This document shows, one piece after another, positions 38,871-56,064 of a stretch of DNA of 64,000 bases (position 1 is its first letter; each line of letters opens with the position of its first letter). The notes under the pieces were generated by a model. That model made no database searches, was not told where the DNA came from, and worked only from the letters and a program-made list of their open reading frames with translations. The stretch is from a virus: IMG/VR virus record IMGVR_UViG_3300030202_002193, positions 20,539-84,538 of that record; one strand, written 5' to 3'. A program made the position numbers and the translations under genes.

Positions 38871-39217
38871 GTAAAAATCTCCAAAAATTTCCCGTAATTT
38901 GTTCGTCACTAGCGCAATTTTTCTTTTTTTTAATTTACTATTCCCAGAATAAGGTTTTTTAATTTACTTTTTTATTTTATTATATTTTAATTTGCGATAT
39001 TTTCTTGTTTTTGGTATTGTTGCAAACTTTTAATTTGAATCATTTCGCATAGCGTTTGACTTCTTGATGTTAAGAGGCTAAAGTAACATGGTATTTAGTA
39101 TTTATTAGATAATAAGGGTGCAAAAGTCTAATTGGAGGGATTAAAGAATCGTTTGTTAAAAAAAAGATTTTTGATACAAAGCCATATGGTTGTGCTTTGT
39201 TAACGCCCCGAAGGGTA

Positions 39218-39556
39218 CTATGTGGTTAATATTGACCAAGCAGAACTGGCATAGGTTTCTGAATTATCCTCATCCGATTCATACATTATACAAACCATTT
39301 CCAAAATCTTTCTGTTTGGACCTTCGGCTACATCCCAATTAATCGCATCTCTCAATCCATGTTTTTCAACTTCAGATTTGAAAACTTCAAACTCTGCATC
39401 TAGGATTTCTTCAGATGGAATACCATCTCTTTCTCGAACACATTCTCCACATAGAACAGTTACATCTATTTCAGAAAGGTCATCCTCATAATCTGAATAA
39501 TATATTCCATAATCCACTGTATTTCCACATTCACATTGCCCACTTCTCCACGACAT
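39218..39556 (-). CDS. acidic Zn-binding cassette protein
   Basis: CECG...LCGEC; sole gene between repeats 1 and 2. Confidence 0.7.
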   Translation of the reverse strand: MSWRSGQCECGNTVDYGIYYSDYEDDLSEIDVTVLCGECVRERDGIPSEEILDAEFEVFKSEVEKHGLRDAINWDVAEGPNRKILEMVCIMYESDEDNSETYASSAWSILTT

Positions 39557-39637
39557 AATCTAACTCATTTATTCTAAATAAGTAAGGTACTATCAAAGCC
39601 TAGTACCATATGGTTGCTTTGTTTTACCCTAGAAAAA

Positions 39638-39662
39638 AGAGGGGGGTTTAACCCCCCCCTCT
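39638..39662 (-). terminator. GC hairpin followed by U-run on minus strand
   Basis: AGAGGGGGG-TTTAAC-CCCCCCCTCT adjacent to A6 on plus strand. Confidence 0.7.
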
Positions 39663-39665
39663 CAT

Positions 39666-39965
39666 TTAATCGCCTATCCTAATCCAATTCCCATTCCAAG
39701 CCTCACCGTTTAGATACCATGTGAAATCTTTTTGTTGAATGTGGACCCCTGTTAAACCGTTTAGCCTTTCCTTAGTTGTGTTTGAAGACCATCCACCGTT
39801 TGAAATATATATTCCATCGGCGTTACTGTATGCTATCAGGTTTCCGTGTAGTCTCATTTCAGCCTTAATGTCGTCAATTCTAAGAACTGCCGTATTGCTT
39901 TTTTTGTAGTTGCCAGCCCATGCGTTTTCAAATGCGTGACATGCTTCTCTTGTAATTTTGCGCAT
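39666..39965 (-). CDS. conserved phage-type hypothetical protein (cassette 2)
   Basis: LHGNLIA...GWSSNTTKERLNGL motif typical of small early phage proteins. Confidence 0.7.
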   Translation of the reverse strand: MRKITREACHAFENAWAGNYKKSNTAVLRIDDIKAEMRLHGNLIAYSNADGIYISNGGWSSNTTKERLNGLTGVHIQQKDFTWYLNGEAWNGNWIRIGD

Positions 39966-40039
39966 ATCTTAATAGAGATTATTTAATTAAGTGAGGTAAT
40001 ATCAAAGCCTATTACCATATGGTACTGGCTTTGTAGAAC

Positions 40040-40705
40040 CCTAAGATAAGAAATCGGGAACAGGGGCTATATTTCGCTGACAAAGGGATGCGCTCACTGA
40101 ATAAGGAGTTAGTTACTTGATACTTTAACTAGTATTTCACAAGAGTCCAACTACCGTTTATTGCTGATTTTGCCACAACCGATGGTTACTTTATAGTCTT
40201 ATTCCGTCATTCTCACCATGTCCCAAAGTTGCCTAGGATTTGCAATGGGGGTATTTCGTGGGTGGGAAAAAAAGCGGGGGTCTATGGAATTCTTTAAGCC
40301 CAAAGGTTCCTTAAAAAACATCTCATGGTGTTCTAATAGACCCCCTAGAAAGGGATGGAGACAGGGATGGAAAAAATGCGCTTGAAAACACTACAGACAA
40401 TCTCTGTTAGGAATACGCCCTGCCCCCTTAGAATGGGCGAGAGAAAACCTTTATCTGTATGTGAACCATACAGGATGCGACGATTTCGGTAGTTGGCCCA
40501 ACTACACGCCATTAGGTTTTTTTATTTGCTCCAAACTCTCATGAAGTGTGGTTATACTTCAGGTTCTTCTTCAAGAAAGTCCCATATATCTCTATATGGA
40601 TTCTCTTTACTATTCAAGTAAATATCATCTCGATTTCCCCCTTTAGTTTAACCACTTCAAGTGGATAATCGGATAGATATTGACTTTGCCACTTGAATAA
40701 CCCAA
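40040..40705 (-). ncRNA. candidate large structured non-coding RNA (cassette 3)
   Basis: No ORF of 60 aa or more, cassette promoter present, many stems. Confidence 0.45.
40552..40617 (-). CDS. possible 21-aa acidic peptide (TTG start) NSKENPYRDIWDFLEEEPEV
   Basis: GAGATGA RBS-like motif upstream. Confidence 0.3.
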   Translation of the reverse strand: MNSKENPYRDIWDFLEEEPEV

Positions 40706-40784
40706 TATATGTATTCGAATTATTAGTAAGGTAGACAAAGCCCTACCATATGGTAGGCTTTGTTAATACCCTGTAAAGGGAGCC

Positions 40785-40814
40785 ACCCCCTAGGTCCGAA
40801 GTCCTAGAGGGGGC
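40785..40814 (-). terminator. hairpin with C(UUCG)G tetraloop on minus strand
   Basis: CCCCCTAGGTCCGAAGTCCTAGAGGGGG at 3' end of cassette 4. Confidence 0.65.
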
Positions 40815-40861
40815 AAATAGCACAAAATTGTGCTTACAACGGTTGGGAAAACCGAGGATAA

Positions 40862-41008
40862 TTATTCTTCTTCACCTACAAATGGTGCTAAAAACTCCGC
40901 ACCGAATTGGTCTGCTATATTATCTAACATAGTCAAGTTTTCATCTAACATAATTGCCAACTCTTCTAAAGTATAGTTGCTCATAAATTGTATTACCCTT
41001 TCTTTCAT
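40862..41008 (-). CDS. 48-aa acidic protein (cassette 4)
   Basis: Hand translation MKERVIQFMSNYTLEELAIMLDE...GEEE; ATGA coupling. Confidence 0.6.
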   Translation of the reverse strand: MKERVIQFMSNYTLEELAIMLDENLTMLDNIADQFGAEFLAPFVGEEE

Positions 41009-41259
41009 TCTTCTTCATCTCCAACAACGGAAACACTTGAAGAATATCTCCTTGGGTTATTAGCATTAGAAATACTTCTATCAGGGAATAATTGACAACC
41101 TATCGCCACCTTAGCGTAGGGGAATAAGTGATGCCTATACATCTTCTTATTTCGGTTGGCACAATAAGATTGCCACCATCCATCTCCTTCAGCAACTCTT
41201 TCTCTATACTCTTCTATTGGCTTCCCGCCAACTACTTGTTCTTCTTCCATATCTATCAT
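41005..41259 (-). CDS. hypothetical protein (cassette 4)
   Basis: 84 aa, coupled. Confidence 0.6.
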   Translation of the reverse strand: MIDMEEEQVVGGKPIEEYRERVAEGDGWWQSYCANRNKKMYRHHLFPYAKVAIGCQLFPDRSISNANNPRRYSSSVSVVGDEEE

Positions 41260-41447
41260 CTCAAAGTCTTGTCATTAGGGTGATTCCTGTTATGTCTAGC
41301 ATGTCTTTGTGCTAGAGTTAGGCCTAGGTCAGCGATTGACCAAACTAACCTTGTGGTATCTCCGTAATTCTTTTCTGCCAATATAGCCCTAATAGGGCGA
41401 CCCTTGTAAAAGGTAATTGGGTTCTCATATCTAGTTCTCCAACTCAT
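41256..41447 (-). CDS. hypothetical protein (cassette 4)
   Basis: AGGAG RBS; first gene after cassette promoter. Confidence 0.6.
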   Translation of the reverse strand: MSWRTRYENPITFYKGRPIRAILAEKNYGDTTRLVWSIADLGLTLAQRHARHNRNHPNDKTLR

Positions 41448-41580
41448 GTTTTTTTCTCCTAGTTAGCGATATCAAATTACACAGATTAAGTTTAAGGTAG
41501 ACAAAGCACTACCATATGGTACTGGCTTTGTGGACCCCGATTTTAATAAATTGGGGCCGAGCAAAGCAAAACTCGACGAA

Positions 41581-42132
41581 TCAGCCTTGTACCTCCTCGT
41601 TTTGGTCCGAATCGGCGGCTTCTTCTTGTACTTCGTTGGAATAGTCGTAGGACTCCATTGAGTCTACATCTCCACCCCAAACTCCGGCGGAATATCTAAT
41701 CATCATTTGCTTGTCAGCATGTGCGACTAGATAGTTTGCCATTTCTTCAACAGTCTCAAAGGAACATGGGACTCCCTTGTGAATTCTGCCATCGTGCTTG
41801 ATATCCATAGATGCTCCTCTTTTATTCCATGTAGGTAAAAAGACGGTAGCGAAGGCAATAGCGGCCTTCATCAATTTCTTAGCCTTGTGTGAATCCCAAG
41901 CAGTTTGCTTGTCTTCAGGTAAGGTAGGTTGTGAATTGGAAAGGCGAGGTGCGCCTCCAATTGCGTTGTAGTTATTTCTTAGTAGGGGCCAAATCTCCGC
42001 CACTTGTTCCGGCGTTTCTGCTCCTCTAATTCCTGCTATCAGTCCTTGAATGCTAGTTCCTAAAAATCCGCAATCATTGTTTGCGACATAGGCTTCAATA
42101 GCACTAACTTTCTTCATTATTGTTTCACTCAT
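41581..42132 (-). CDS. hypothetical protein (cassette 5), paralog of 43298-43774
   Basis: True start MSETIMKK after GGAGATGA RBS. Confidence 0.75.
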   Translation of the reverse strand: MSETIMKKVSAIEAYVANNDCGFLGTSIQGLIAGIRGAETPEQVAEIWPLLRNNYNAIGGAPRLSNSQPTLPEDKQTAWDSHKAKKLMKAAIAFATVFLPTWNKRGASMDIKHDGRIHKGVPCSFETVEEMANYLVAHADKQMMIRYSAGVWGGDVDSMESYDYSNEVQEEAADSDQNEEVQG

Positions 42133-42289
42133 AATATCATCTCCAAAAGGTTTTGATTCATCGGTTTGCTTTGCTCGACTACCCATAATATGCCACACAA
42201 ATGATAAGGTATTGCTACAAAGCCACCAATACCATATGGTTGTAGGCTTTGATACAACCTTACTTATTTTACAAGACATTAATCTAATT

Positions 42290-42574
42290 ATGGTAAGCAA
42301 ACCTAACAGTAGAGATATTAGAGAATGGGTTATAGATTTTTGTAACTCATATGAAGACCACAGTTATGATAACATAACCGAATATATTGACGGAATAGTA
42401 CCTTATACATATTTTGAAATCTTGAGCCTTTTCAACAATATGGGGTTGGAAATAACACATGCTCATGTAGGCACTCCTATTTGGGAAATAATGAGAATGG
42501 ATATATTTTACATTTGGGAAGAAAGATTTAGAGAAGACTACGAAGAATATATGTACGAACTTGAGGAGGAATAA
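42290..42574 (+). CDS. Ocr (T7 gp0.3)-like acidic DNA-mimic anti-restriction protein
   Basis: DNITEYIDGIVPYTYFEILSLF aligns by eye with Ocr [22 protein letters not shown]; very acidic C-terminus. Confidence 0.65.
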   Translation: MVSKPNSRDIREWVIDFCNSYEDHSYDNITEYIDGIVPYTYFEILSLFNNMGLEITHAHVGTPIWEIMRMDIFYIWEERFREDYEEYMYELEEE

Positions 42575-42576
42575 AT

Positions 42577-42714
42577 ATGTATTACGAAGAAGCATGCCAT
42601 TGTTGTGGTAAAGGAATAACCATCACAGGGGCATATATTGCAAACTATTCTCTTGTATTTTGTGAAGATTGCGGATATGATTCGGAATATTGTCACGGTT
42701 GTTGTGACCCCTAG
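42577..42714 (+). CDS. 45-aa Cys-rich micro-protein
   Basis: Hand translation MYYEEACHCCGKG...FCEDCGYDSEYCHGCCDP; GAGGAGG RBS. Confidence 0.55.
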   Translation: MYYEEACHCCGKGITITGAYIANYSLVFCEDCGYDSEYCHGCCDP

Positions 42715-42774
42715 GGTCGCTAAAACAAAGCAAGCCACCTAAAACAACTATAAACCCCTACTCTGAAAAAGGCA

Positions 42775-50731: not shown

Positions 50732-51964
50732 ATGAGATTATACATAAACAATGGAAGTACAGATAGACTAACAACTGAAATAACTATAGAAGAAGGAAGA
50801 GATTTCATACCTAATGGACGCATTTATACTGTAAGTCCAAACTGGAATGCCAAGGGAGACCCCTTGCTTTCAGGATTAAGCAGTTTTTGGCAAAAACGCA
50901 TTAGGTGTAGGTATAACTACGAAAGCGTGCTTAAAATAAAAACCTACCCTATTCATATTAAGAAGAATAAGGGCTATTTCATAAACGGAACTAGAATCGG
51001 AATCAAAGGTATGTCTATGGTCTTAGCGAGACTAACCTATGCTTCGTGTTTAGAACAAAGTGATTCTAAGATGACATCTATTTTTATAGATGCTATGAAT
51101 ATACCCGAACAAGTTTCATATGCGTTAGAAAATCGTGCGCCGTATAGTTTTTATGAAAATTATACTTTGCAAGAAGTACGATTGAATGTAGAGCCTATTG
51201 GGAATAAAAAATATGCGATAGAGATATCTGATTCTATTTGGGGTGAAATTTCACAAAGGGATTTAGTAACCTTTGTCAATACTTATCGTGATAACCTGAA
51301 GAGAGGTTCGTGGAGTCAATTAAGCCCTAAGAAATTATATGGGAAACTTATGCAAGCAGAACCATCCGATTCAGAACTGAAAGTAATGAAAGCCTTTCTT
51401 TCCCAAAACAGAACCCAAGATATAGTCGAAAAAAGAGCAAAGGAATTAATTCAAGAAACTTGTGATTTAATGCCTAACAATTTCTTCTATTACAAGATAG
51501 ATGTAGAGGAAAACGGGACTATAGAGAAGGCAGGGCTGAAAATTACTAACCAAGATAACGAATGGTTATTTATTAGAGGTAGAAAATACGATTGGATGAT
51601 TCGTAAGGCGAGTAATCGTGCTAGTAGACAATCAGTAAATACCTTCGTGTATAATCAAGTAACTAAGAGGGAGAAGACAGGACAAATTAAAAATGAAGAA
51701 GGCGTATGGGTAGACACCTACGAAGAAATAACCTCCTTCCAATGGAGAGGGCCTATTTGCGTAGATAATCTAGCATTTAACGGCGCACAATCTATTGGCG
51801 ACCAAATGGTAGCAAGAGCATATGCCTTCCTGAATGATTCTGTTACTATTAATTTAGTAAGTACAATTAATTCCTATCTAAACAAAAAAGACATGTCTGA
51901 AAATAGATTAGACTTTGAAGGAATGATAATGGATGATGTGGAGTCCTTGATATGTCCTGTGTAG
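50732..51964 (+). CDS. hypothetical protein with candidate catalytic Cys (possible E2-like carrier)
   Basis: C-terminal WRGPICVD resembles E2 G-x-I-C-L-D; lies in Ubl/E1/JAB operon; fold unverified. Confidence 0.45.
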   Translation: MRLYINNGSTDRLTTEITIEEGRDFIPNGRIYTVSPNWNAKGDPLLSGLSSFWQKRIRCRYNYESVLKIKTYPIHIKKNKGYFINGTRIGIKGMSMVLARLTYASCLEQSDSKMTSIFIDAMNIPEQVSYALENRAPYSFYENYTLQEVRLNVEPIGNKKYAIEISDSIWGEISQRDLVTFVNTYRDNLKRGSWSQLSPKKLYGKLMQAEPSDSELKVMKAFLSQNRTQDIVEKRAKELIQETCDLMPNNFFYYKIDVEENGTIEKAGLKITNQDNEWLFIRGRKYDWMIRKASNRASRQSVNTFVYNQVTKREKTGQIKNEEGVWVDTYEEITSFQWRGPICVDNLAFNGAQSIGDQMVARAYAFLNDSVTINLVSTINSYLNKKDMSENRLDFEGMIMDDVESLICPV

Positions 51965-52782
51965 AGTGTGGTAGTAGTAATTTTAATTTTGATGAAAGAT
52001 TGGGAGAAAGGATTTGTATTAATTGCGGTTTAGTAGAAATAACCGAGATATTTGAACAAAGCGTTTCCCAATACAATTCAAATGGAGAATTAGTTAGAGA
52101 GTCTACCTTTAGGAATACCTTGGGTACTACTAATAGGAATAGATATGATGTTAGCGAAAGCAACATACAGACGGGCCTAGTTTACTGCAATCTAGTTTTG
52201 TCTTCTATCGCAACAAACCATCCTCTTAGAGATAGGGTAGAAGAATGCTATATTTCCCTCTTTAGAGGGAATGTATTTAGTAACAAATACAGTTATGAAA
52301 ATAGAGCAACGGCCTTGGTATATTATGTTTTGAAGGAAAATGGGATTGCTATTAAGATGAGTGATGTTCGTAAGGAATTTGAATGTGATATGCGCAAGGT
52401 GAATAAATTAACTAGGGTGATTGCAAAACACTTTGGTAATTCCGGTGTATATGCTAGGGACAATATAGTTTCTCTTTTAGATAAGACTTCTAGAGAAGTG
52501 AATGATACTGCGGAATTCATTACATTGTGTCAAGAGATGCACATAGCCGTCAATCCTATTTTAGAAGAAAATGATTTTACTAAAGGGAGGACTTATTGTG
52601 CCGCAATATGTCTAATAGTAGCGAGTGCTAATTTAATGCAAATAAAACAAAGGGACTTGGCTAAACGAGCCGGATTTGATATTTCCACGATTCGTGTTCA
52701 GGCTAAGAAGATTCTAGGTATGTTAGGATATAACAATCTAAAAGAAATTAGTGGAAAAACAATAGGAGATATGATAAAATGA
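51952..52782 (+). CDS. tfb: transcription initiation factor IIB-like protein
   Basis: Zn ribbon CVECG...D...GERICINCGLV, two cyclin-like repeats, C-terminal HTH QRDLAKRAG. Confidence 0.85.
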   Translation: MSCVECGSSNFNFDERLGERICINCGLVEITEIFEQSVSQYNSNGELVRESTFRNTLGTTNRNRYDVSESNIQTGLVYCNLVLSSIATNHPLRDRVEECYISLFRGNVFSNKYSYENRATALVYYVLKENGIAIKMSDVRKEFECDMRKVNKLTRVIAKHFGNSGVYARDNIVSLLDKTSREVNDTAEFITLCQEMHIAVNPILEENDFTKGRTYCAAICLIVASANLMQIKQRDLAKRAGFDISTIRVQAKKILGMLGYNNLKEISGKTIGDMIK

Positions 52783-54332: not shown

Positions 54333-54559
54333 TTAAAACGATAGGAAGATGGATTGGGTTTTTGCCTCTAACAGAAGAAAGCGCAAGCGGAATAAAAAGT
54401 GAAAGTTTGGATAAAGGTATTGTTCATTGGGGAAGTAAAGGAGACACCAATGGATTAAAGATTGGAGATAAAATACACTTCGATATTAACAAGGTCGCCT
54501 ACAAAAGTAGTGACTATTGGATTATTGATGCGGATTATATTTACGGGGTGATTGAATGA
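54329..54559 (+). CDS. groES: co-chaperonin GroES-like
   Basis: EESASGI mobile-loop motif, LKIGDKI.F, IYGVIE; directly upstream of groEL. Confidence 0.7.
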   Translation: MIKTIGRWIGFLPLTEESASGIKSESLDKGIVHWGSKGDTNGLKIGDKIHFDINKVAYKSSDYWIIDADYIYGVIE

Positions 54560-56064
54560 TTTTATTTGGAGAAGAAGTAAGAGAAAAACTACTACAAGGG
54601 ATTAATCTTGTAGCAGATACAGTAAAGCCGACGCTAGGGCCACAAGCACACAATGTAATCTTGCAAGGTAATCCTCCAATTATTATTAATGACGGAGTTA
54701 CTATTGCTAAGTATGTTTCTCATCCGGACCCATATGTTTCTATGGGAATTAAACTAGTTCAGAACATTGCTTCTAAGGCTCAATCAAATGCAGGTGATGG
54801 AACCACTACTGCCTGTTTAGTTGCGGCGGCTCTTTGTAATGGATTGTCTAAATATAAAATAAATGATATCCATACTGTAAAGTCTAATCTAGAAGAAATT
54901 AGAGATGCGATATTACAAGGCATTGTCGAACAAACTAAAGAAATTAGTGACGAATATATTTTGCATATTGCCACAATTGCATCTAATAACGATGCCACAA
55001 TGGGTAAATTAATTTCAGAAGTAATAGATGTTGTTGGCCGTGATGGAATTATTACGGTGAACGAAGGCAATCAACTAGAAACTACCTTCGAAGTTACAGA
55101 TGGATTAGAAATAGATGAAGGGTATTTTAGTCATTTAATGGCGAATGACCCATCAGGTATTTGTGAATTGAAGAACCCTTTGGTTTTAGCAACTAACAAA
55201 CACCTAATTAATTTTGCAGATATTCTTCCAGCACTAGAACTTGCTTCTAATAAAGGTAGGCCAATTCTTATTTTTGCAAAAGCAATTCAAGGTTCTGCTC
55301 TTAACAATACGGTAATGAATATCGTAGACGGAAGAATACAGGCTTGTATTGTAAAAGCACCGAACTTCGGAGATGCCCAACTAGATGAGTTAGGAGATAT
55401 TGTTGCCTTGATGGGTGGTAAGTTATTCAGTGATGAAAACAATGACGATATCGCTACTGTAAAGTTTGAAGATTTTGGCTCTTGTGAAAGAGTAACTATT
55501 ACTTCAGAATCCACAGTACTAATTGGAGGTAAAGAGAACATAGACGATAGGGTATCTTCTCTTAAATTAAGATACGAAGAAGCAACTTCTAACTATGATA
55601 AACTAAGATTACAAAAGAGGATGAGTAGGCTTCAGGGAGGAGTGGCGGTAATTTCTGTTGGTGCGGCTTCTAGTATAGAAATGAGAGAAACTAAAGAAAG
55701 GTTAGATGACGCTATTAATGCCACCAAAGCCGCTTTATCCGGTGGGATTATTGTAGGCGGAGGAATCGGACTCGCTAATGCTACTACTGTTTTAGATGGA
55801 AAGATACACCCTCAATTAGAAATGATTGTTACGGACGCATTAATGCACCCGTTACTTACCCTTGCAGAAGGAAAGGACTTAGACGCTATTGAGTTAGGAT
55901 TAACTAACACACACGGTTTTAATGCTTTAACTAGAGAGAAGATGTGCTTGTCTAATGCAGGGGTTATTGACCCTGCTAAAGTTACTATCAGCAGTTTCAC
56001 TGTTGCTATGTCTATTGCAATCTTATTCTTAACTACAGATGTAGCAGTATTGTTGGAGGAATAG
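54556..56064 (+). CDS. groEL: group I chaperonin GroEL
   Basis: TLGP, NDGVTIA, AGDGTTTA, KAPNFGD, GVAVISVGA, DDAINATKAA, GVIDP. Confidence 0.95.
   Translation: MILFGEEVREKLLQGINLVADTVKPTLGPQAHNVILQGNPPIIINDGVTIAKYVSHPDPYVSMGIKLVQNIASKAQSNAGDGTTTACLVAAALCNGLSKYKINDIHTVKSNLEEIRDAILQGIVEQTKEISDEYILHIATIASNNDATMGKLISEVIDVVGRDGIITVNEGNQLETTFEVTDGLEIDEGYFSHLMANDPSGICELKNPLVLATNKHLINFADILPALELASNKGRPILIFAKAIQGSALNNTVMNIVDGRIQACIVKAPNFGDAQLDELGDIVALMGGKLFSDENNDDIATVKFEDFGSCERVTITSESTVLIGGKENIDDRVSSLKLRYEEATSNYDKLRLQKRMSRLQGGVAVISVGAASSIEMRETKERLDDAINATKAALSGGIIVGGGIGLANATTVLDGKIHPQLEMIVTDALMHPLLTLAEGKDLDAIELGLTNTHGFNALTREKMCLSNAGVIDPAKVTISSFTVAMSIAILFLTTDVAVLLEE

Follow-up and report, generated by a model that had tools for sequence, protein, structure and literature searches.

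The 64,000-nucleotide (nt) stretch of viral DNA analysed here (the window; bases 20539-84538 of the 84.5-kilobase (kb) IMG/VR record IMGVR_UViG_3300030202_002193, which is rated complete) probably carries, at 40705-40045 on the minus strand, a stand-alone gene for a functional structured RNA of an undescribed family. We put the probability of this reading at roughly 0.7, a figure that excludes the assembly mechanism considered further below. The initial annotation of this DNA had suggested an undescribed, essentially non-coding structured viral RNA and had named Rfam as a check, and the suggestion held up: there is no conserved open reading frame (ORF), conservation exceeds that of neutral sites, base pairs change in a compensatory manner, insertions and deletions (indels) the size of whole hairpins occur at the ends of helices, and no Rfam family matches.

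Homologues were recovered from three IMG/VR contigs and ten marine metagenome contigs, L009 by way of a flanking gene, and L011, L012 (IMG/VR) and the ten metagenome contigs by degenerate patterns. Including the window, seven different full-length sequences were obtained, which fall into four lineages (the window and L016; L012, L015 and L018; L011; L009), and near-identical DNA was present in 20 runs from 10 studies (marine, estuary, freshwater and ballast water; 2014-2025). Wider searches added none: blastn with two lineages as query against 50,697 GenBank phage records gave no match, pattern scans of 185,579 prokaryote genomes gave 0 and 11 matches (all 11 being chance matches by nhmmer), a viral scan with the 3'-domain pattern gave no further members, the family of a terminase-like neighbour, with only 15 members, led to two new loci with the RNA in neither, and other DNA windows of the same survey had no sequence in common with the RNA. 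A further candidate, L013, was rejected as a chance match inside an integrase gene.

The ORF-less unit of 0.66 kb sits between two palindrome elements and takes up one slot in an array of small early units, each with a palindrome and a promoter-like box. Its landmarks are:

40736-40762, no strand: upstream boundary, an imperfect palindrome, CAAAGCC-CTACCATATGGTAG-GCTTTG
40719-40733, minus strand: TATA-like, promoter-like box TACCTTACTAATAAT, directly behind the palindrome at 40736-40762
40045-40705, minus strand: predicted structured RNA of ~650-660 nt, with homologues in four lineages that align across the full span
40003-40033, no strand: downstream boundary palindrome, followed by the promoter box of a Gp96-like gene

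The box at 40733-40719, annotated from the start as a full cassette promoter, is as in protein cassettes, its activity being predicted from sequence. A TACCTYA..TAAT box also follows the palindromes of the protein cassettes at 39606, 40015, 41512 and 42232, and a ACCATATGGT element with this box is common to five units (further copies of the ACCATATGGT palindrome lie at 42218-42251, near 39606 and near 41512). In two protein cassettes the ATG follows the box after ~34 nt, a spacing that would be as expected for leaderless archaeal messages. Given the box and this spacing in the protein units, the RNA start was put near 40705-40700, just ahead of the first hairpin, and the unit would be transcribed from the TATA-like box as in the neighbouring leaderless genes. 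The 3' end was set by the U-rich 3' strand of a helix, P1, where transcription would stop; the L009 RNA terminates in UUUUUUAUUUUUUU at the equivalent place.

Protein coding offers no account of this conserved unit as a whole. Between 39966 and 40862 there are 13-19 stop codons in each of the six frames, and stops of all three kinds (TAA, TAG and TGA) in all frames rule out recoding. The longest ORFs between the palindromes have 55 amino acids (aa), and no long ORF is conserved in any of the seven distinct homologues; beyond an ORF of 21 aa, which is present as first annotated, the stretch is ORF-less. Substitutions over the whole RNA (38/57/49 and 42/60/42 per codon position) have no clear periodicity, compared with 41/19/18 in a neighbouring control gene, and indels in one hairpin, H7, between close relatives (19 vs 17 nt; 21 vs 25 nt) are not multiples of three. 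A conserved ORF with third-position excess was found neither in intact nor in decayed form, and only the 21-codon ORF gives a weak signal.

Conservation of the RNA equals or exceeds that of the protein genes on either side. Nucleotide identity between the window and L012 is 78% for the RNA, 46-73% for the neighbouring genes and 37-60% at their third codon positions; the corresponding values are 76%, 65-84% and 48-71% for L011, and 63% (84% over ~200 nt of the 5' part), 46-74% and 35-58% for L009. RNA conservation exceeds that at third codon positions in each of the three neighbouring genes, and that of the whole gene for a 183-aa protein, which has 32% amino-acid identity to its L012 and L009 counterparts. 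Between L012 and L015, the 183-aa-type proteins differ by ~10% (counted on the sequence starts) and the RNAs are 97% identical outside variable tips. The comparison shows an RNA core apparently under purifying selection, with hairpin tips that seem free to change. Decay of a protein gene, or a neutral spacer that cassette turnover left behind, would fit an ORF-less stretch in a densely coding genome and an array that gains and loses units, but conservation above the neighbours' third positions and above the 183-aa gene speaks against it, and no homologue has an intact long ORF; the case foreseen in the initial annotation, in which homologues reveal a decayed protein gene, was examined among the homologues and did not occur. 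We consider this origin hardly credible.

The fold was assessed by cutting the RNA at invariant anchors into four domains and applying RNAalifold and pair counts to each domain alignment. The consensus holds 121 pairs (one helix dropped), of which 20 changed on both sides with pairing kept: 2 of 42 in domain A (5'; alignment A7), 3 of 27 in domain B (alignment A4), 8 of 22 in domain C (alignment A6, with one helix dropped) and 7 of 30 in domain D (3'; alignment A5). The covariation score was above all 500 shuffles in each of the four domains, whereas in the control, the Gp96-like coding gene of the same lineages taken through the same pipeline, it was reached by 39 of 500 shuffles. The percentage paired (91% of cells in the control) and a slid-partner contrast were also high in the coding control and were given no weight. 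A large (>500 nt) multi-junction structure emerges with covariation support, from four lineages only, and the layout of P1, loop, P2 and P3 recurs when the 3' domain of each of the four lineages is folded alone. The helix UCUCGCC/GGUGAGA, proposed by RNAalifold in domain C, was the one dropped; it competes with P1 and with GAGAG/CUCUC, and three of its seven pairs are broken in L009.

By comparison, the predicted RNA shows four domains: the 5' domain contains a tiny ORF, the second is a junction, the third is a long helix to which a hairpin is optionally added, and the 3' domain is closed by P1 and P2 with a tandem G.A loop between them. Their elements are:

40656-40697, minus strand: H1, 5' hairpin UUCAAGUGG/CCACUUGAA, 8 pairs, with one A-U to U-A change in L009 (CUAGUGG/CCGCUAG)
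40548-40655, minus strand: 5' domain, closed by invariant GUGGUUA/UAACCAC and holding a GGGGG run, a mini-ORF and the 21-aa ORF
40582-40599, minus strand: H3, CCAUAU-AGAG-AUAUGG, inside the ORF, with a U-A to A-U compensatory change in 3 sequences (CCAUAU/AUAUGG vs CCAAAU/AUUUGG)
40439-40540, minus strand: domain B, where GAGAG/CUCUC and AAAACCU/AGGUUUU close a junction with hairpins H6 and H7
40455-40473, minus strand: H7, CUGUAUG/CAUACAG, base conserved, tip (7 to ~60 nt) different in every distinct homologue
40357-40427, minus strand: H8, GGGGGCAGGG/CCCUGUCUCC, enclosing H9 (40393-40407), with both-side changes at 3 pairs of H8 and 3 pairs of H9
40275-40348, minus strand: H10, optional 74-nt hairpin (GGGGGUCUA.../...UAGACCCCC), in the window, L012 and L018, cleanly absent from L016, L015 and L011
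40045-40217, minus strand: 3' domain, with P1, a 4x4 loop, P2, P3 and inner hairpins
40210-40217 with 40045-40052, minus strand: P1, GGUGAGAA/UUCUUAUC; in L009 GAAAGGAA/UUCUUUUU
40206-40209 with 40053-40056, minus strand: invariant 4x4 loop UGAC/CGAU, tandem G.A, between P1 and P2
40200-40205 with 40057-40062, minus strand: P2, GGAAUA/UGUUCC; in L011 GGAGU/GGCUCC
40192-40196 with 40067-40071, minus strand: P3, CUAUA/UAUAG vs CCGUA/UACGG

In domain B, AAAA(C/U)CU / AG(G/A)UUUU and the GUAG hairpin (H6) are well supported. H8 reads GGAGACAGAG/CUCUGUCUCC in L012 and GGGUAGCGGAU/AUCCGCUACCC in L009, the H9 variants are ACAGA/UCUGU and GCAGA/UCUGC, and a CUUG/CAAG helix of the 3' domain (40140-40143 with 40116-40119) has two compensatory pairs, with CCUA/UAGG as its variant. 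Six stems had been listed from the single sequence, and four of them exist and are kept in the homologues: 40656-40697, where one lineage has a compensatory change; GTAGTTG/CAACTAC at 40489-40505, with compensatory changes; CTGTATG/CATACAG at 40455-40473, whose base is conserved and whose tip is hypervariable; and 40275-40348, which is the whole optional hairpin, absent in three of the seven distinct homologues. The other two were not sustained, GAATAAG/CTTATTC (40099-40204) being confined to the window lineage, with its 3' arm deleted elsewhere, and GGGAACAGG/CCATGTCCC pairing at only six of nine positions; the conserved long-range helices there are P1 and P2.

The ORF within the 5' domain raises an alternative, namely that the transcript is mainly a messenger RNA for an acidic 21-aa micropeptide (MNSKENPYRDIWDFLEEEPEV if UUG is read as Met) and that the remainder is a long structured untranslated region (UTR), with a bifunctional RNA also possible. 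Two features define it:

40628-40614, minus strand: mini-ORF AUG-AUA-UUU-ACU-UGA, overlapping the UUG start of the 21-aa ORF
40617-40552, minus strand: 21-aa ORF LNSKENPYRDIWDFLEEEPEV, TTG start

The GGGGG run and the AUG of the mini-ORF (4 codons) would recruit a ribosome, which would re-initiate at the overlapping UUGA. The GGGGG run does lie 7-8 nt ahead of the AUG, the AUG-AUA-UUU-ACU-UGA/UUG arrangement is invariant, and the ORF (21-22 codons) is open in all four lineages, with five of the six changes between the window and L012 at third codon positions, an in-frame 3-nt insertion in L009 and conservative amino-acid changes (E/D, N/S). On the other side, at four of these six changes RNA pairing is also maintained or strengthened (U-A to A-U in H3; G.U to G-C twice), and over all lineages five of eight events fall at the third position (binomial estimate, p ~0.09). 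Nucleotide conservation in the ORF region also goes beyond coding need, the ORF lies inside a closed helix with its start in a hairpin loop, and ~470 nt past the stop are conserved as well. We judge a mainly messenger role to be rather unlikely; translation of the 21-aa ORF, which would be compatible with RNA function, is a tentative possibility.

A function at the level of DNA, such as an origin of replication, a site for packaging or recombination or a group of binding sites for proteins, was weighed against a gene for a structured RNA. The unit is ~2.5 kb away from the point near 42.7-43 kb where gene orientation and GC skew both change (minus-strand genes give way to plus-strand genes at ~42.7 kb), cassettes rearrange at the palindromes on either side of it, and dimeric proteins could bind its CTAG palindromes. 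Against this, the unit contains neither iterons nor direct repeats, it offers no AT-rich stretch for unwinding (its GC of 0.40 is higher than the mean of the genome), many of the conserved pairs, being G.U, form on one strand only, and compensatory changes and palindromes with switching flanks suit base pairing rather than a fixed DNA site, such that we consider a DNA-level function very improbable. As for the strand, G.U pairs fill 70 of the 837 paired cells and occur in three columns of P1; the 3' domain folds at -51 kcal/mol in the sense direction (minus strand) and -36 in antisense; and the promoter box, the U-rich end and all neighbouring genes are on the minus strand.

Tips of the hairpins at 40455-40473, 40275-40348 and 40075-40092 are swapped wholesale for unrelated hairpins, also between RNAs that are otherwise 93-99% identical (the window vs L016; L012 vs L015 vs L018), and the H10 tip is swapped between L012 and L018. 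Relaxed constraint with fast indels is the simple reading of these swaps, diversifying selection being the alternative; presence or absence of a whole hairpin together with tip replacement is typical of structured RNA. H10 was also considered as an intron and rejected, its boundaries forming no bulge-helix-bulge by inspection. The tandem G.A loop UGAC/CGAU, which is invariant, may mediate tertiary contacts or bind a protein; a C/D box or kink-turn was ruled out by inspection, the loop being symmetric.

This loop is also the candidate site in another interpretation, in which an abundant early RNA acts as a decoy or sponge for host defence or for a host RNA-binding protein. The RNA lies among small early accessory cassettes, the 4x4 G.A loop is invariant in all lineages, and variable tips would suit an arms race. 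However, no link to any defence system was found and no partner is evident nearby, though no dedicated defence-gene search was made; the G.A loop, being symmetric, lacks the 3-nt bulge of a kink-turn; and the variable tips are themselves hairpins, as in unconstrained expansion segments. We regard a decoy role as unlikely. Antisense targets in the virus's own genome were likewise set aside: 25 complementary 12-mers were counted vs 5-22 in shuffles, and the two runs of 15-16 nt are GAAGAAG-type sequence.

Two apical loops of the predicted RNA suggest how copies of it might interact:

40232-40237, minus strand: loop palindrome site 1, CCUAGG, in the loop of a helix with a compensatory change
40128-40133, minus strand: loop palindrome site 2, ACUAGU, in the loop closed by CUUG/CAAG

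Both carry an NCUAGN' hexamer whose outer bases switch together with the palindrome kept. At site 1 the window and L011 lineages have CCUAGG, the L012 lineage has UCUAGA and L009 has ACUAGU; at site 2 L009 has UCUAGA and the three other lineages have ACUAGU. Adjacent bases are unable to pair within one molecule, and pairing between site 1 and site 2 would involve the central four bases only. Switching loop palindromes in OLE (L9.3) and GOLLD (L21a) have been read as intermolecular kissing loops (Kretsch et al., bioRxiv 10.1101/2024.12.08.627333), and manA cages are held by kissing loops (preprint 10.64898/2026.07.01.735769). Because the flank-switching palindromes found here resemble those of OLE and GOLLD, we propose intermolecular kissing loops for this RNA too. 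The RNA would then act in trans, as RNA: copies would self-associate through symmetric kissing loops at the two NCUAGN' sites, and a dimer or higher assembly made early in infection would serve as scaffold or container, as for ROOL, GOLLD, OLE and manA. This self-association is argued by analogy and we hold it only tentatively. It is more doubtful still that the RNA founds a new class of self-assembling archaeal-virus RNAs, forming a closed oligomer or cage early in Poseidoniales infection, with an unrelated fold and an embedded micropeptide ORF.

Several observations weigh against a gene for a functional structured RNA and the details of its model. Folding energy sets apart only the 5' 265 nt (z = -3.93, 0 of 200 shuffles) and is ordinary for the middle part (226 nt; z = -0.50) and the 3' part (177 nt; z = -0.52), such that the dense stems of the initial annotation stand out in the first part and not in the other two; over the whole 726 nt, z is -2.3 for the minus strand and -2.6 for the plus strand (20 shuffles each). 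With energy unremarkable outside the 5' part, stem density in a single sequence is a weak argument, and the case rests on the comparison of homologues. That comparison has only four lineages, hence weak statistics; domains B and C fold slightly better on the antisense strand and give no strand discrimination; and a naive scan yields many alternative 'compensatory' stacks, for example CACC/GGUG, which competes with P1. Structure taken from the window alone keeps pairs changed on both sides about half the time, no better than the coding control, so the model is provisional in its details, with inner and apical parts that are specific to a lineage; ten or so predicted core helices are supported. 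The palindrome argument is post hoc, with three flank switches (~1/64 by chance). Part of the conservation may also come from recent cassette exchange: in contigs of three other metagenomes, 39993-41500 has two differences in 1.5 kb while the adjacent Gp96-like gene (39660-39965) is ~10% different, a mosaic pattern that appears to point to recent exchange of units. Recent transfer accounts for some of the near-identity, not for the pattern across four lineages. No transcript of the unit was found: RNA data sets were absent from those with the stretch, and the contigs of one metatranscriptome left the region uncovered, which gives no evidence either way.

The surroundings of the RNA gene vary. 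Units with the repeated boundary and promoter are rearranged among relatives, the gene downstream of the RNA unit differs from lineage to lineage, and the RNA is the largest RNA unit in the cassette array of the virus. It lies downstream of the Gp96-like gene in L009 and upstream of it in the window and L012 (region 39176-42737); at L020 the Gp96-like unit is inverted relative to the RNA, and in the window a further unit of three ORFs (40862-41447) separates the RNA from the 183-aa gene. The all-helical protein of 170-188 aa to which the 183-aa protein belongs (window 41584-42132, minus strand; L012:11487-11996; L020:3702-4265, minus strand; L009:7604-8125) is the immediate neighbour of the RNA unit in three of the four lineages and lies one unit off in the window, with 32-57% identity between lineages. 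The 183-aa protein matched no Pfam or PHROG family and, with Foldseek against the PDB, nothing at E <= 0.001; its AlphaFold2 model is all-helical (pLDDT 72.5). It could be a partner of the RNA or a mere syntenic neighbour.

The virus encodes a portal, a tail-tube protein, two ATP-dependent DNA ligases, a replication factor C subunit, a protein with a TFIIB zinc ribbon and a Cpn60/TCP-1-family chaperonin. Magroviruses of Marine Group II (Poseidoniales) archaea encode almost all of a replication apparatus, along with a chaperonin (Philosof et al. 2017, PMC5434244), and the homologous contigs found here are all marine (Tara Oceans, JGI); since gene content and marine origin agree with magroviruses, the virus fits a magrovirus-like virus of marine archaea (Poseidoniales), as judged from sequence. 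No mention of non-coding RNAs was found in the magrovirus papers that were searched. The protein with the zinc ribbon (276 aa, 51952-52782, plus strand; ribbon N-terminal, E = 1.7e-07) could be a viral transcription factor B that steers host RNA polymerase to the cassette promoters. The chaperonin (54556-56064, plus strand) has GroEL as its top GenBank phage matches (38% identity) and may be bacterial-type, as reported for some magrovirus groups, and not a thermosome subunit. At 33500-38900 on the minus strand, many small genes at the head of the late operon share a ~30-nt start encoding M-(S/T)-W-K-(D/N)-I-L-K (repeat families D1-D3), and relatives carry the same start motif (MTWKDILK...).

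Large elaborate RNAs that are neither ribosomal nor self-splicing are rare, and to our knowledge the known ones (OLE, GOLLD, ROOL, raiA and manA) all come from bacteria and their phages. The RNA described here would come from a virus of the uncultured and very abundant marine Poseidoniales, and it is near-unchanged in ocean, estuary and ballast-water samples over a decade. If it does form a cage, it would be an archaeal counterpart of the ROOL, GOLLD and manA nanocages. Its defined sequence of ~650 nt could be transcribed in vitro and offers an entry to the questions of whether RNA-only assemblies exist in the archaeal virosphere and what role they have for the virus.

Among known families, Rfam 15 at gathering thresholds gave 0 matches over the whole window (cmscan), and Rfam scans of the region and four homologue loci at lax E-values returned chance-level matches only, with no ROOL, GOLLD, OLE or manA. 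Twister-P5 (RF02684; 23.3 bits vs a gathering score of 37.6, E = 0.021, plus strand 40730-40806) was taken as chance; its match covers the boundary palindrome and the GC-rich terminal hairpin of the neighbour, outside the RNA. A short ORF (21 codons, predicted) set between structured domains is a likeness to transfer-messenger RNA (tmRNA) and bifunctional RNAs, but the RNA differs from tmRNA in that it has no ARAGORN or Rfam match (ARAGORN found no transfer RNA (tRNA) or tmRNA gene in the 64-kb window) and no tRNA-like end pairing. We know of no use of tmRNA in Archaea. The PeSL (promoter-early stem-loop) cassettes of T4-type phages, which Arbiol and colleagues are said to have described in 2010, are reportedly early units bounded by a stem-loop and a promoter and shuffled among relatives; the likeness concerns the architecture of the carrier, not the RNA, and the boundary here is a ACCATATGGT palindrome with an archaeal-type TATA-like box.

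The manA RNA motif (RF01745; 192-position model) is marine and viral and is described as a 5'-UTR element (Weinberg 2010, PMC2864571). The RNA of the window is more than three times the length of that model and stands alone, with its own promoter-like box and U-rich end, and not in a 5' UTR. That it is a very divergent, enlarged manA member would agree with the assembly of manA RNAs through kissing loops, but the RF01745 model (gathering score 55.2 bits) gave no match at E <= 10, whether in the whole 84.5-kb genome or in five related records, and manA is absent from the lax cmscan lists; we consider such membership quite improbable and, on sequence comparison, place the RNA in a family different from manA.

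ROOL (~581 nt) and GOLLD (>800 nt) are large ornate RNAs of phages and prophages (Weinberg 2017, PMC5737381), and ROOL, GOLLD and OLE form RNA-only homo-oligomers (Kretsch 2024, bioRxiv 10.1101/2024.12.08.627333). The RNA described here departs from ROOL and GOLLD in its lack of an Rfam match, its archaeal virus in place of a bacteriophage and the tiny conserved ORF inside it, and from all three in having no tRNA gene nearby (64-kb window), frequent proximity to tRNA genes being a trait of theirs; oligomerisation is reported for them and, for the window RNA, deduced from sequence alone. Like ROOL and GOLLD, it would nonetheless be a stand-alone viral non-coding RNA of >600 nt with multi-helix domains, variable peripheral hairpins and no known protein partner, and like OLE and GOLLD, it has loop palindromes that switch between different palindromes.

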